Assembly (NCBI GenBank): GCA_964016885.1
Contig: OZ024741.1
Coordinates: forward strand, 45,136,001-45,200,000
Length of the DNA: 64,000 nucleotides
Direction: 5' to 3'
Source of the DNA: Eledone cirrhosa
Taxonomy: Eukaryota
Of this stretch, positions 1,798 to 58,620 are shown piece after piece. A program made the position numbers and the translations under genes. Position 1 is the first letter of the stretch. Every line of letters starts with the position of its first letter. Under the pieces are notes generated by a model. That model saw only the letters and a program-made list of their open reading frames with translations, was not told the DNA's origin and made no database searches.

Positions 1798-1934
1798 GTA
1801 TACTAGGGAGAGGATCAGGGGTGTATAACACTCCACTTATCCAGCAGGCAGTATAAGGTTAGCTCAATGTCTGAGGACAGAGCCGTGATATAATAAATAA
1901 CAAAGAACGCCTATAGCATATGCATATCTTTACT

Positions 1935-1980
1935 TGCTAACATTGTTTCATCCGCACTATAAGTGGGACTCATCAGAGCA
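1935..1980 (-). ncRNA. Type I hammerhead ribozyme
   Basis: Reverse complement: TGCT-CTGATGA-GTCC-cacttatagtgc-GGAT-GAAA-CAATG-TT-AGCA; canonical core, stems I and II present. Confidence 0.85.
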
Positions 1981-2781
1981 TAAAGGTTAATTACATACCA
2001 TACAAGCAATAACAAATCCAAGACATTGAAGAAAGAAAAATAATAATAGACGATAAAGGATATTAAGGAAGTAAAAGTAAAAATAAAGATAAGAATAAAA
2101 ATAAAAATAAAAATAAAAATAAAAATAAGATAATAAAATAAACAATGAAAAATAAGGGGTGCTATCAGTCACAGTTGGGCGGGGTGCTGTCAGCATATAG
2201 TTACATACAAGCATACACATGGATAAGAGAACAGACAAGAGTAGATAAGATAGATAGGATTAGGTAAGAGTAGGTAAAAAATAGGTGAAAAACAGACTTA
2301 TAATATATATAAGAAAATATAAAGAAATACATAACAAACTTACATATAAAATATAAAATATACAGATAATAGTGATACAGGGTAAGGAATGAGATAAAAT
2401 AATATAAAATTAAAATTAAAATTATATAAAATAGAACATAATATAATATAATTATAAAATAAGATAAAATAAGGTAAACTAAAATAAAATAAAATAGACT
2501 AAATTAAAATAATATAATATAAGATATAATTAAATGTAATTAAATAAATAAATAAATAAATAAATAAATAAAAATTAAATAAATAAATAAAATTAAAATT
2601 AAATTTAAAATTAAAATTAAATTTAAATAAATAAATAAATAAATAAATAAGTAAATAAATAAATAAATAAATAAATAAATAAATAAATGGAATTAAATAA
2701 GTAAATAAATAAAATGAGATAACATGAAATGAAATAAAATAAAATAAAATGAAATAAAGTAAATTGAGATAAGATATATAT

Positions 2782-2942
2782 TTTTTTAGAATATATCTCT
2801 TGAATATATCAGGGGCCCACGAAGGCCCTAAGTGTCACAGTTATGTGTATCACTTGACCAATTTTTTAAAAATATATTTCTTGAAAATATCAGGGGCCCA
2901 CGAAGGCACTAAGTGTCACAGTCACCAGTATCACTTGACCAT
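2782..2942. repeat. Two-copy tandem duplication, ~81 bp period
   Basis: tatcaggggcccacgaaggc.ctaagtgtcacagt....gtatcacttgacca occurs twice. Confidence 0.9.
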
Positions 2943-4435
2943 TGCAAGGCAATGGAGGCGTCCCAGGTTGGGCAGTCTCAAAAGTTCACTCGAAAGTCGC
3001 GGGTGTGCATTCACACAGTTGAGCGGTGGGGTAATCACAAACCGGTTCACACCCGGGCAGGAGTCCAATAGTCAGAGAGAGGTGCATCGAAGGAAGGTAG
3101 AAGAATTCACGTGCATTAGCAAGCGAGGTGCAGGCGGGTTAGCCAAAGCAAGCAGACACAGTTGGAGCGCATACAAAAGATATATAAAAAGACAGAAGAT
3201 ATATAAAAAATAGCTTCAAGAGCCATTAAGTCACCGCATTGGGACATCACAAGATTGTACACATCAATATGTTCAGCACGTATATGCACATATACACACC
3301 ACATGCATATGCAGAGACGGTATACATATATATATATATATTTTTTTTTATATACAGACATATACAACCACCTACACCCATACACATATAAATGTATACA
3401 CGGACACACCCGCACACACACACAGCGTAGGACACCCGGGTCAAAGCTGATATTAAACACCGAAATACCACATTAGGCCAGACCCACCACCACGGATAAT
3501 ACATTCAAAATAAATACATACGATGAGATGTAGTAAAATAAAGTTGAAATCCTACGGAGATAATCATGTCCGCACGTGCCATTGCCCGATTCAAGTGTAC
3601 ACAGACCGGTAGTAACTACGGAGGGCTATCGGGGCCAAAACGTTACTTTCGGGTTCAGAACAACGACCGTCAATATATGGAAGGCCGATCGTGCTAGAAA
3701 GACTACAACCCCGGGCAAGAGCTCCCAGAAGTCAGCCTGTAGATCTTAAACCACAGAATATGAGGGCAACACGTACATGCGCCACGTATCCACTGCTTAC
3801 GGCGGGATGGCACAGGTCCGCCCACAGTTACAGGCTAAATTTCTATTAGTGCAGCCTAAATCACAGTACACGCTTTACATAAATACGTTACATCACAACT
3901 CTATAGATATATGTATATATATACATATATGTATATATAGACATATATACATATATGTATATGTATATATATATGTATATATATATATATATATATATAT
4001 GTATATATATACATATATGTATATATATACATATATATATGTATATATATATATATATATATGTATATATATATATATATATATATGTAAATATATATAT
4101 ATATATATGTATATATATATATACATATGTATATATATATATATATATATATATATATATATATGTATATATGTATATATATATATATATATATATATAT
4201 GTATCTATATATATATATGTATATATATATATATGTATATATCTATATATATATATGTATATATCTTTATATATATATATGTATATATCTTTATATATAT
4301 ATATATGAATATATCTTTATATATATATATATGTATATATCTTTATATATATATATATGTATATATATATATATATATATATAAAGATATATACATATGT
4401 ATATATAAAGATATATACATATATATATATAAAGA

Positions 4436-55097: not shown

Positions 55098-55655
55098 ATT
55101 GTTAGACTTTGGGAGGGTCATGTTGCCAATAAGAAACACACGAACCAGTTACCCCACTTCAATTTATTATATATTTATAAATTTATAAATTTACAAATCT
55201 ACAAACTTGTAAATTTCTGGTTGGTTGGTTGGTTCCACAACCAGATAGTTGTTTATATATATAGTCATAGTCCTTTCGTCACACACTCTGTGACCTCTTC
55301 AGTGACTGGGGATTCCTTTCTTCTCTTCGTTTCTGTGCCTTTTCTTTCTTCTATCCTACGCCATTTTGTTTCTGTGTGACAAGAAACAAAATGGCGTAGG
55401 ATAGAAGAAAGAAAAGGCACAGAAACGAAGAGAAGAAAGGAATCCACAGTCACTGAAGAGGTCACAGAGTGTGTGACGAAAGGACTATGATTATATATAT
55501 AAACAACTATCTGGTTGTGGAACCAACCAACCAACCAGAAATTTATAAGTTTGTAGATTTGTAAATTTATAAATTTATAAATATATATAAAATGGAATTG
55601 AAAGCAACTGGTGCGTGTGTTTCTTATTGGCAACCTCCCAAAGTATAACAATATC
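55098..55655. mobile_element. ~550 bp palindromic pLTR dimer (centre ~55377) with HHRs at 55263-55307 (-) and 55448-55492 (+)
   Basis: Arms are reverse complements; same family and same centre as 46644-47045. Confidence 0.88.
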
Positions 55656-56019
55656 GGTTTAAACACACGATTTCAGATAAAGAATCTTGCTAAACAAATT
55701 CAGAAACGAAATACATATATATATATATATATATATATATATATATATATATATATATATACATATATATATATATATATATATATATATATATATATAT
55801 ATATATATATATATATATATATATATATACATATATATATATATATACATATATATATATATATATATATATATATATATATATATATATATATATATAT
55901 ATATATATATATATATATATATATATATACATATATATATATATATACATATATATATATATATATATATACATATATATATATATATATACATATATAC
56001 ATATATATATATATATATA

Positions 56020-56536
56020 TAACTTTGAATAACTTTGAAATGTTTTGGCCAGTATTGGCCCAGGCCATGTCTAACTTAATAGCACCACCTGGTGAAGTCT
56101 TTCAATTCAGGATTTGGGCACCATGGCCCATTCGAGAAGAGAATTACTGTTTGCGGAGACATATCCGGGTGTGGGTGGTTTGTCCGGGATTACTTGGAGG
56201 AATTTGTCCAAAGACTTCTTGAATTTTGTGTGGTCAGTTTCTGTTTTGACGTGTCCTGGTGTGATGTTGAAGAGAGCAGGGCCGATTGAGGTGAAATAAT
56301 TGTGCCGTATTGTTGTTATGAGTTGCGATTTAGATTTTTGAATGGGACGGATAGCACGGGGCCCAAGCCTTGGGTGTATCTTGAAGGCGATGCCAACATC
56401 ATTTGGGCAGTGATGATGGAACATTTTCTACATCATGCAGATAATATAACGCTCACGGCGACGTTGGAGTGAGTAAAGTTTCAGGTTTTCTAATCGACCC
56501 CAGTAGTCAAGGTCTGACATGCCATCTATCTTTTTA
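56020..56536 (-). mobile_element. CR1/L2-group LINE 3' fragment (same family as 17795-18616)
   Basis: [43 protein letters not shown]; same tail. Confidence 0.88.
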
Positions 56537-56908
56537 CATATATATATATATATATATATATATACATATATAAATACATATATATATATATATACATATA
56601 TATATATATATATATATATATATATATATATATATATACATATATATATATATATATATATATATATATATACATATATATATATATATATATACATATA
56701 TATATATATATATATACATATATATATATATACATACATATATATATATATACATATATATACATATACATATATATATATATACATATATATATATATA
56801 TATACATATATATATATATATATATATACATATATATATATATATATATATATATACATATATATATATATATATATATATATATATATACATATATATA
56901 TATATATA

Positions 56909-58620
56909 CAGCATTTTCCGTTGTGTTGTAATATAAATATTACACACAGTAGATTATCAGCTCACGTAGAGTTTGCTCGACGGTTCCAGTTGTAGTTCCA
57001 AAAGTAATCCGGAGAAAAATAGAAAGATTTGAATGGATACAGTTTAGTTGAAAGGAATTTATTGACACGTGTTTCTATAACAGTTACATAACCTAAAACA
57101 GCTATCTACAAACTTTTAGTTATGCAGACATTCAATATTTCAATGTTATTATTTACTGTCATTTCATCAGAATAATATTACTGAGGACCTATTTAGTTTT
57201 TATAGAGAATATTAGGAGGGAGGGGTGAAGTTGTTAGAAGAATATTTGAAGGAGTGGTTTTTCGATAGCAGTGAGAATTCTTGGTGGCAGTGAGTAATTA
57301 GATTCCCATCTGTTGTTTTGACATTTTTTATAGAATATATTATTGGTTATTTTTCTAAATCTATAGAAGGATTAGAGATAGTGAAGATATGCGTGGTTGG
57401 TTTTGTGTTTGCACTTAATTAACATTCAGACTTAAATTTTTCTTTCAAGTGTACGTATCCTTTCACCCACGCATTCACACACAAATATATTTGCACACCT
57501 CTACAAAATACATATACACACAATTCACATATCATACTTACATATATATACACATGCATACACATATATATACACACATGTATTCATGTACATACATACG
57601 CGCTCATGTGTATACATTTTCATACTCAACTTATCTTTATATACACACGTATAGACACACACATATATACATACATACTCTAGTCCATGTGTACACACAT
57701 ACACATACATACACATCCATATACACATATATACACACACACATACACATACACATATACATATATATATATATATATATATATATATATATATATATAT
57801 ATATATACATATGCATACATACACAAACATACATATACACACATATACATATATATATATATATAAGCACTTTAATACATGAATACACTTACATCTAACT
57901 ATACACATCAAACATATATATATATTTACTTATTCATATACATTTTCACATATATATACATAATTATGGACGTTTTTAGACACATTCATTATCGCATATT
58001 TGTACCTATTCTCATCAGCATATCTTTTCATTATTAGTATGGTAATTTAAGGTTATTAATATATGTTGAGAAGAGATTGTTTTTATATTTTTCTAACTAG
58101 ATTAAGGTTTATATAGTTGGGGGATGTCCCTCTTTTATGTAATATTCGGCTTGTAGTGGGAAAAAAGGGTTTTAGTTCTGTGACGGCAGAATAATGTTCG
58201 TTCAATTCTGTCTGAATGTTAATTAAGTGCAAACACAAAACCAACCACGCATATCTTCACTATCTCTAATCCTTCTATAGATTTAGAAAAATAACCAATA
58301 ATATATTCTATAAAAAATGTCAAAACAACAGATGGGAATCTAATTACTCACTGTCACCAAGAATTCTCACTGCTATCGAAAAACCACTCCTTCAACTATT
58401 CTTCTAACAACTTCACCCCTCCCTCCTAATATTCTCTATAAAAACTAAATAGGTCCTCAGTAATATTATTCTGATGAAATGACAGTAAATAATAACATTG
58501 AAATATTGAATGTCTGCATAACTAAAAGTTTGAAGATAGCTGTTTTAGGTTATGTAACTGTTATAGAAACACGTGTCAATAAATTCCTTTCAACTAAACT
58601 GTATCCATTCAAATCTTTCT
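56909..58620. mobile_element. Minus-strand PLE 3' fragment (56909-58210; family of 20683-22490) plus inverted pLTR arm (58211-58620)
   Basis: 57020-57430 is the reverse complement of 58211-58620; HHR-like TTGAAGA..GAAACACGTGTC at 58530-58577 (+) and 57064-57111 (-); bulged hairpin at 56976-57014 (-). Confidence 0.88.

Follow-up and report, generated by a model that had tools for sequence, protein, structure and literature searches.

Introduction

Penelope-like elements (PLEs) have been described with inverted arms and a tail, and also as solo or truncated pieces. In the Hydra clade, according to Craig et al. (2021, PMC8557442), canonical hammerheads are readily detected and (TA)n is the insertion target of nearly all families. 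But what is the ribozyme for? The literature treats as open both what the hammerhead contributes to PLE transposition and how the inverted arm and tail came about (Frangieh et al. 2024, PMC11167929). The same study followed PAc, a Poseidon PLE from Anolis, in vitro: it uses two internal start sites, both strands are extended, and the RNA used is uncut. A circular template had already been proposed in 2014. A retrozyme, in the definition given by preprint 10.64898/2026.07.22.740005, consists of tandem units that each contain a ribozyme.

Here we analyse a stretch of 64,000 nucleotides (nt) of Eledone cirrhosa (OZ024741.1, 45,136,001-45,200,000; called the window), from a genome of 3.0 Gb. TA-rich arrays make up about 39% of it, perfect (TA)6 or longer 25% compared with 4.8% of a genome sample, and nearly everything between the arrays is mobile-element debris. 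The window's hammerhead motifs are probably the ribozyme-bearing 3' ends of 14 endonuclease-bearing (EN+) PLE families, joined to (TA)n at two fixed sites per family, likely by an enzyme that cleaves the repeat and uses both DNA ends as primers at two start sites within the RNA. The motif, its orientation, the two modal ends, the combination of a proximal and a distal end in each mirrored insertion, and the coding read-through copies can be read from the sequence itself. Because many independent families share one layout, the start of copying, the mark that sets it and the pairing with the target can be looked for by comparison.

Hammerhead motifs in the window

The window contains 27 hammerhead motifs or 3' halves from 14 PLE families, in line with the initial annotation, which had counted more than 20 motifs from about a dozen families. 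All of its 23 listed positions are hammerhead-derived (17 with an intact core, four with one core change and two 3' halves). The type I core (C3-A9, G12-A15.1 and U16.1-H17, with stems I-III in type I order) is present at 17 sites. A strict scan (type I hammerhead descriptor plus stem checks) finds ten intact cores on the minus strand (1976, 8634, 11767, 20018, 29028, 33244, 46845, 47805, 55302 and 57170) and five on the plus strand (14494, 28632, 52413, 55453 and 58471); the cores at 23470 (+) and 23700 (-), with a 3-bp stem II and a 4-bp stem III, fall below its stem II threshold and were read by eye and by family pattern. Eight further sites have one core change, four of them listed before and four being U4A copies absent from that list (4508-, 4857+, 5570- and 5919+), which came from a relaxed scan permitting one core change. 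G12A at 7628, U16.1C at 15740 and G5C at 22338 are private, each with intact relatives elsewhere, and A13C at 20402 is family-wide. The 3' halves lie at 19770, which has a full-length relative at locus L068, and 24818; an additional 5' half lies at 47007.

Are these motifs more than chance? The strict scan gives 15 matches against 0.68 +/- 0.93 in 40 dinucleotide shuffles of the non-TA segments, and the relaxed scan 25 against 2-4 in six shuffles. As first noticed, the motifs lie near (TA)n and point at it: (TA)6 or longer follows within 250 nt downstream of the predicted cut in 15/15 strict matches, compared with 21% of random window positions. An Rfam scan of the window gave no hammerhead among the matches listed (150 of 1,075), these being 149 microRNA models and one viral untranslated region (UTR) model on TA repeats and hairpins.

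The self-cleavage sites given for these hammerheads, after H17, are predicted. Judged by eye, stem III is short and palindromic or near-palindromic in about 10 of the 14 families; it is closed in families 19770, 4508, 23470 and 15740, which could fold as monomers. Of the earlier description the type I topology is supported, and a palindromic stem III acting in a dimer would suit the group of about 10 families. Co-folding of eight motifs gave an intermolecular stem III for 8634 and 28632, and minimum-energy folds rarely show the active form.

Which elements carry the ribozyme?

By their protein motifs, the ribozyme-bearing inserts are Hydra-type and Neptune-type EN+ PLEs. Clades were assigned from these motifs and not from a tree of the reverse transcriptase (RT), and the Neptune-type motifs are compatible with Nematis too. 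Pfam finds RT in 3/13 window frames (RVT_1 in 48950-51097 just above the cutoff) and no GIY-YIG; the endonuclease was identified by motif reading, with the GIY-YIG pattern in 5/6 window frames tested. A CxCX5C linker precedes GIY-YIG in frames 31037-32488 and 10288-11190, and a longer-spaced form in 20687-21319 misses the pattern. Read-through copies have RWR/RWK at the start of the open reading frame (ORF) in seven families and DKT in six of these; a relative of family 1976, at locus L222, continues into such an RWR/DKT ORF. Since RWR/RWK, DKT and CxCX5C are diagnostic of the Hydra clade, the families are called Hydra-type. The CX2-5CxxC linker occurs in 48950-51097 (together with DKG), in 6364-7338 and in relatives of 46845 and 20402, with DKG wherever the RT N-terminus is present. 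Copies reading past the ribozyme enter a long frame or its start in 9/9 families tested and in family 20402 (10/10). The PLE origin first suggested for the motifs is borne out. Coding remnants are kept in seven window inserts, the others being non-coding stubs. The inserts are as follows (strand given where an insert has a single one).

1805..3643, minus strand: 3' piece of a Hydra-type PLE, no ORF found; intact core 1976 with its cut predicted at 1939; the end is close to the distal fixed site, at (TA)n
4449..5002: two-armed Hydra-type stub; U4A cores 4508 (-) and 4857 (+)
5511..6044: duplicate of 4449-4982, 99.6% identical; U4A cores 5570 (-) and 5919 (+)
6277..7865, plus strand: Neptune-type 5'-truncated PLE; thumb/GIY-YIG frame 6364-7338; hammerhead 7628 with G12A
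8394..11192, minus strand: Hydra-type 5'-truncated PLE; CxCX5C/GIY-YIG frame 10288-11190; hammerhead 8634 with U4C core and perfect palindromic stem III
11551..14581: Hydra-type insertion with two arms (11680-12746, 13518-14581); intact hammerheads at the distal end (11767, -) and at the proximal end (14494, +)
15398..15886: fold-back stub; the hammerhead at 15740 (+) has a U3-A8 core and the change U16.1C
19693..19881, plus strand: fold-back stub of an abundant Hydra-type family; hammerhead 3' half with closed stem III, inversion inside stem II
19950..20201: two-armed stub of family 8634; intact hammerhead 20018 (-)
20254..20444, minus strand: Neptune-type stub; A13C hammerhead 20402; proximal-site end plus a 14-nt inverted piece of the distal end
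20687..22489, plus strand: Hydra-type 5'-truncated PLE; GIY-YIG frame 20687-21319; long-stem-II hammerhead 22338 with G5C
23374..24186: two pieces of one Hydra-type family that converge and share 90% identity; intact cores 23470 (+) and 23700 (-), 4-bp stem III
24815..24929, plus strand: stub of a sister subfamily of 23470; hammerhead 3' half
26879..28720, plus strand: PLE piece; endonuclease remnant 27054-27416; intact hammerhead 28632
28850..32489, minus strand: Hydra-type 5'-truncated PLE; CxCX5C/GIY-YIG frame 31037-32488; canonical hammerhead 29028, predicted cut 28997; distal-site end, TA at both ends
33104..36910, minus strand: Neptune-type PLE with a broken RT-endonuclease frame; hammerhead 33244 of the U3-A8 kind, at a proximal end
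46648..47036: Neptune-type fold-back stub; hammerhead 46845 (-), 5' half 47007 (+)
47628..52553: two-armed Neptune-type insertion; RT frame 48950-51097; one hammerhead at the distal end (47805, -) and one at the proximal end (52413, +)
55104..55704: stub of family 46845 with two arms; one hammerhead at the proximal end (55302, -) and one at the distal end (55453, +), the latter with a tail of about 60 nt
56915..58610: piece of family 57170/22338 with two arms; hammerheads with a long stem II at the distal end (57170, -) and at the proximal end (58471, +)

Two fixed ends per family

Where do the elements end? In the eight families for which both were counted, there are two modal 3' ends, 36-113 nt apart; near and far ends lie about 50/139, 25/114, 42/155, 51/153, 110/147, 169/229 and 124/164 nt downstream of the cut. 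The copies compared are numbered loci (L) taken as the top BLAST matches, hence biased to young copies and to query-covered ends; only L031-L089 and L330-L359 are unbiased. Head-to-head pairs combine a proximal and a distal end in 49/50 classifiable cases, and nine more pairs have an unclassified end. Together with the read-through heads, these pairs supply the whole set of pseudo-long terminal repeat (pseudo-LTR; partial tandem), inverted 5'-truncated arm and tail. The ribozyme would then point at TA owing to its position 25-230 nt upstream of the site at which copying begins. In one pair, L133/L134, both arms end at the near site and the flanks are mirrored over about 1.6 kb; this is either a large palindrome or an artefact of the assembly.

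The ends themselves have two features. The TA phase is continued for at least 3 nt at 13/18 modal ends compared with 11.4% at random positions of the same regions (the 18 values were gathered by hand and two ends were left out), and this microhomology suggests primer-template pairing. A bulged hairpin lies 7-10 nt past 18/23 tested ends, against 1.1% in shuffles and 0/5 control ends (three of them Neptune-type). Its basal stem is CUC/GAG, the 3' side has a 2-nt bulge and the paired upper stem varies freely. A literature search on start-site hairpins, circular templates and cephalopod ribozymes gave nothing beyond the papers cited, and the supplements of PMC8557442 and PMC4209133 may hold the hairpin or the variants.

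How could such ends be made? The GIY-YIG endonuclease would cut (TA)n, and each cut end would pair with a UA-rich stretch of 2-7 nt in the RNA at one start site, whose position in Hydra-type families would be set by the bulged hairpin 7-10 nt downstream. Copying would then pass the ribozyme and usually halt early or meet the other arm, leaving stubs. The position just upstream of the start sites would be the sole place where a ribozyme is kept in both pseudo-LTRs. Its likely job would be to cut read-through RNA into unit lengths, maybe circularised, and the template copied by the reverse transcriptase would not be opened at the ribozyme.

Several points weigh against this cycle, which is built on sequence. 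At 5/18 ends the TA microhomology is just 1-2 nt, and PAc in vitro starts at sites non-homologous to its target (PMC11167929). The hairpin test was post hoc on related families, missed 5/23 sites, and not every cluster in it is confirmed Hydra. The comparison of single-armed copies described below covers 16 copies, and its 'inverted' class probably takes in too many. Finally, two young and abundant families have the core changes A13C and U4A, which are expected to impair cleavage; this speaks against cutting as an essential step.

What does the ribozyme do?

Just 4/222 copies have a 5' end within 3 nt of the predicted cut, and these 222 copies show no pile-up of 5' ends there (for family 11767 the extents are too short and the references are related families). 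Hence the template was presumably uncut, or re-ligated, when copied. Separately, two of 50 copies of family 19770 (L307 and L324) fold back at or beside the predicted cleavage site; this family's ribozyme could fold as a monomer, and the two copies are possibly run-off on cut RNA.

What was the template? Copies bearing an ORF and ending at the far site (28850-32489, L093, L096, L099, L108 and L114) offer a clue: as the Hydra-type far hairpin lies beyond the far-site end, a single template molecule must have contained the ORF, the ribozyme and the 5' UTR that follows. Either a circle or a multimer joined head to tail would do. The circle is slightly favoured, because it would account for the retention of the motif immediately upstream of the start sites.

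Is the ribozyme instead a dispensable passenger, with linear uncut multimeric transcripts as template and a loosely kept motif? We regard this as rather unlikely, yet it is the strongest competitor. Hammerhead core changes usually cripple the ribozyme, and here A13C is found in 98/100 listed of the 6,272 exact genome matches of family 20402 (counted by exact pattern search), while U4A is found in the 4508-family copies fetched, a family linked to an ORF at L177, L178 and L184. The missing 5'-end peak at the cut also suits a passenger, as do Naiads, which thrive without a canonical motif, and the in vitro data on PAc, where catalytic mutants do not affect insertion and RNA ends at the cut were looked for and not found (PMC11167929). 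However, the core and the compensating stems persist throughout 83 sequence clusters of the loci scanned, including a C3-G8 to U3-A8 swap, some natural hammerhead core variants stay active, and a re-ligated circle likewise leaves no mark at the cut. The reading we retain is that the ribozyme likely cuts the read-through transcript, and the young A13C and U4A families are a natural experiment on whether cleavage matters. A 2017 study by Lunse et al. may already contain U4A or A13C variants.

Stubs or retrozymes?

The short inserts had been called retrozyme-like. That label is not supported: all families tested, as given above, have a copy that continues from the ribozyme end into a coding frame, and the 5' ends vary. 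Variable 5' ends and coding read-through copies together make the stubs products of truncation and fold-back, so that by sequence the short inserts are stubs of coding families and not retrozymes.

Could they nevertheless be non-autonomous retrozymes, transcribed, circularised and reinserted as units by PLE enzymes? The genome does hold tandem retrozyme-type hammerhead arrays elsewhere (L075:7565-7876, 311-bp period; L077:455-3365, 482-bp period), and animal retrozymes are derived from pseudo-LTRs (2026 preprint 10.64898/2026.07.22.740005). Repeat search, self-BLAST (masked, as TA arrays swamp plain repeat finding) and the hammerhead scan found no array of at least two tandem short units with complete hammerheads in the window. 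There is one local tandem duplication, of 1,062 bp and 99.6% identity (3900-6044), which takes in a two-armed insertion with its TA array. In mirrored arms one ribozyme lies on each strand, and copies differ in sequence at the fold-back junction. Two families come closer to unit copying. Family 19770 has a fold-back hot spot 33-50 nt upstream of the cut in 33/50 copies and is possibly a partial exception, though its junctions differ as well. Several 20402 pairs share one 108-bp spacing, as a subfamily copied as a unit would show; the spacing also points to a hot spot upstream of the ribozyme where copying stops strongly or switches template. On balance a retrozyme origin is improbable, and we keep to truncated and fold-back stubs.

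At least ten A13C pairs among the 100 matches listed are mirrored at this same 108-bp spacing, and so are L349/L350 and L356/L357.

The (TA)n target and the genome-wide load

How general is the association with TA? A genome sample of 59 evenly spaced 10-kb stretches (590 kb, about 0.02% of the genome) gave 91 motifs in the strict scan against 0-4 in five block shuffles, two tandem arrays supplying 13/91. The density is 154 per Mb (bootstrap 108-205), and the genome load extrapolated from this 0.02% is about 460,000 motifs (325,000-614,000). Enrichment next to (TA)n beyond the genomic background had been set beforehand as the refutation test, and it is there: (TA)n lies within 250 nt downstream of 77/88 scorable sample matches and upstream of 31/88, compared with 15.6% of random positions. 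The number of motifs follows TA content across stretches (Spearman 0.57). At least 15 motifs per 64 kb occur in about 13% of resamples, and motif density in the window is only some 1.5-fold that of the genome on average. Rich in TA though it is, the window samples the genome in an ordinary way and is no outlier, and the word 'community', used of it at first, was an overstatement.

Is (TA)n a target, or a product? TA stands at the truncated 5' end of 9/16 single-armed copies compared with 4.2% in the background. This, with the LINE and Ty3/Gypsy pieces in the same arrays, favours a pre-existing target, and the idea of (TA)n as a shared target gains from both this and the downstream enrichment. 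The opposite view, that a telomerase-like enzyme adds or expands (TA)n at the start site without any pre-existing target, could draw on the short UA tracts of the RNA at the start sites, on the variable (TC)n between proximal end and (TA)n in at least 8/29 copies of family 33244 (an element with a short TC run of its own) and on the fact that both outer ends of mirrored insertions are start sites, so that flanking TA does not decide, but is very unlikely given the TA at truncated 5' ends (in the window at 32489 and 36910), the foreign pieces in the arrays and the (TA)n targeting published for Hydra (PMC8557442). With a pre-existing target, the (TC)n runs at the Neptune-type 33244 end may still leave room for some enzyme slippage.

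Other features of the window

A Ty3/Gypsy pol with a 945-aa frame (RT, RNase H, integrase) lies at 38199-42418 between two TA arrays, with no LTR pair in self-BLAST. LINE 3' fragments occur in TA arrays at 17796-18608, 56031-56526, 61332-62019, 25451-26566 and 17175-17260; by their motifs we take them to be CR1/L2-like and RTE-like. Relatives of the fragment at 56031 mostly adjoin TA at one end, and another element class may share the (TA)n target.

The PLE at 20687..22489 has an internal (TA)n (21700-21815) in its 3' UTR, in identical order in 23/24 relatives. A CUGAUGA box and a fixed (TA)n junction recur within the 3' UTR of family 57170 (21350-21815 and 57747-58211), which looks like the relic end of an older element; a new ribozyme end may have been captured by read-through across the TA array. 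The CUGAUGA at 21558 and 58018 was considered as an extra family or a scrambled SGC hammerhead and rejected, as it has no convincing fold by eye and is internal to this 3' UTR in 23/24 relatives. At 47010-47036 about 26 nt matching the distal end of the Hydra-type family 11767 are joined to a Neptune-type stub, a mixed-family junction. A 200-N assembly gap (63491-63690) adjoins a TA array.

Comparison with known systems

Ribozyme-bearing PLEs in TA repeats are already published for the Hydra clade, and there is nothing special to this window; what we describe is largely known, namely new Hydra and Neptune-type members behaving as published. The additions are the genome-wide load, the TA microhomology at both start sites, the start-site hairpins, two amplified core variants and the lack of a 5'-end pile-up at the cut. 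One may go further, and tentatively so, as the following is doubtful as a whole: this would be the densest hammerhead load yet counted (about 460,000), the ribozymes would make a circular RNA with two enzyme-binding start-site hairpins, the (TA)n ends would pair with its UA tracts and be copied in opposite directions, and A13C and U4A would be either new active cores or proof that cutting can be lost in vivo.

With the Hydra clade (Craig et al. 2021, PMC8557442) the families share RWK/RWR, DKT, the CxCX5C linker, a canonical hammerhead near the 3' end, (TA)n insertion, and tandem and inverted structures with a tail. The passages on that clade list few non-cnidarian families, whereas this one window has eight or more families of the Hydra type. 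Their 3' UTRs are 1-2 kb long and their tails about 70-113 nt, and the ends are followed by a bulged hairpin that does not appear in those passages. Shared with the Neptune-type EN+ PLEs of the same paper are DKG, the CX2-5CxxC linker (also found in Nematis), GIY-YIG with internal cysteines, a microsatellite bias and tails of 36-59 nt; one family here differs in its fixed A13C core. The minimal hammerheads of PLE pseudo-LTRs (Cervera and de la Pena 2014, PMC4209133) are likewise type I, with an extra base after A9, the U3-A8 variant and a palindromic stem III, and are mostly single, with many opposite-strand pairs 100-700 bp apart; the closed stem III of four families here is unlike them. PAc (PMC11167929) shares two internal start sites that define the tail, cutting and extension of both strands and an uncut template. 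It starts at sites non-homologous to the target and prefers ATT, whereas the ends here have 2-7 nt in common with (TA)n and are located in the 5' UTR. The metazoan non-LTR retrozymes (PMC7229834; 10.64898/2026.07.22.740005) are also non-coding, carry a type I hammerhead and are related to PLEs, but they are tandem repeats, and the stubs of the window are single or mirrored and come from coding families. As for numbers, 9,000 hammerheads in Xenopus and 126,247 in axolotl compare with the roughly 460,000 extrapolated for Eledone cirrhosa, counts obtained with different descriptors.

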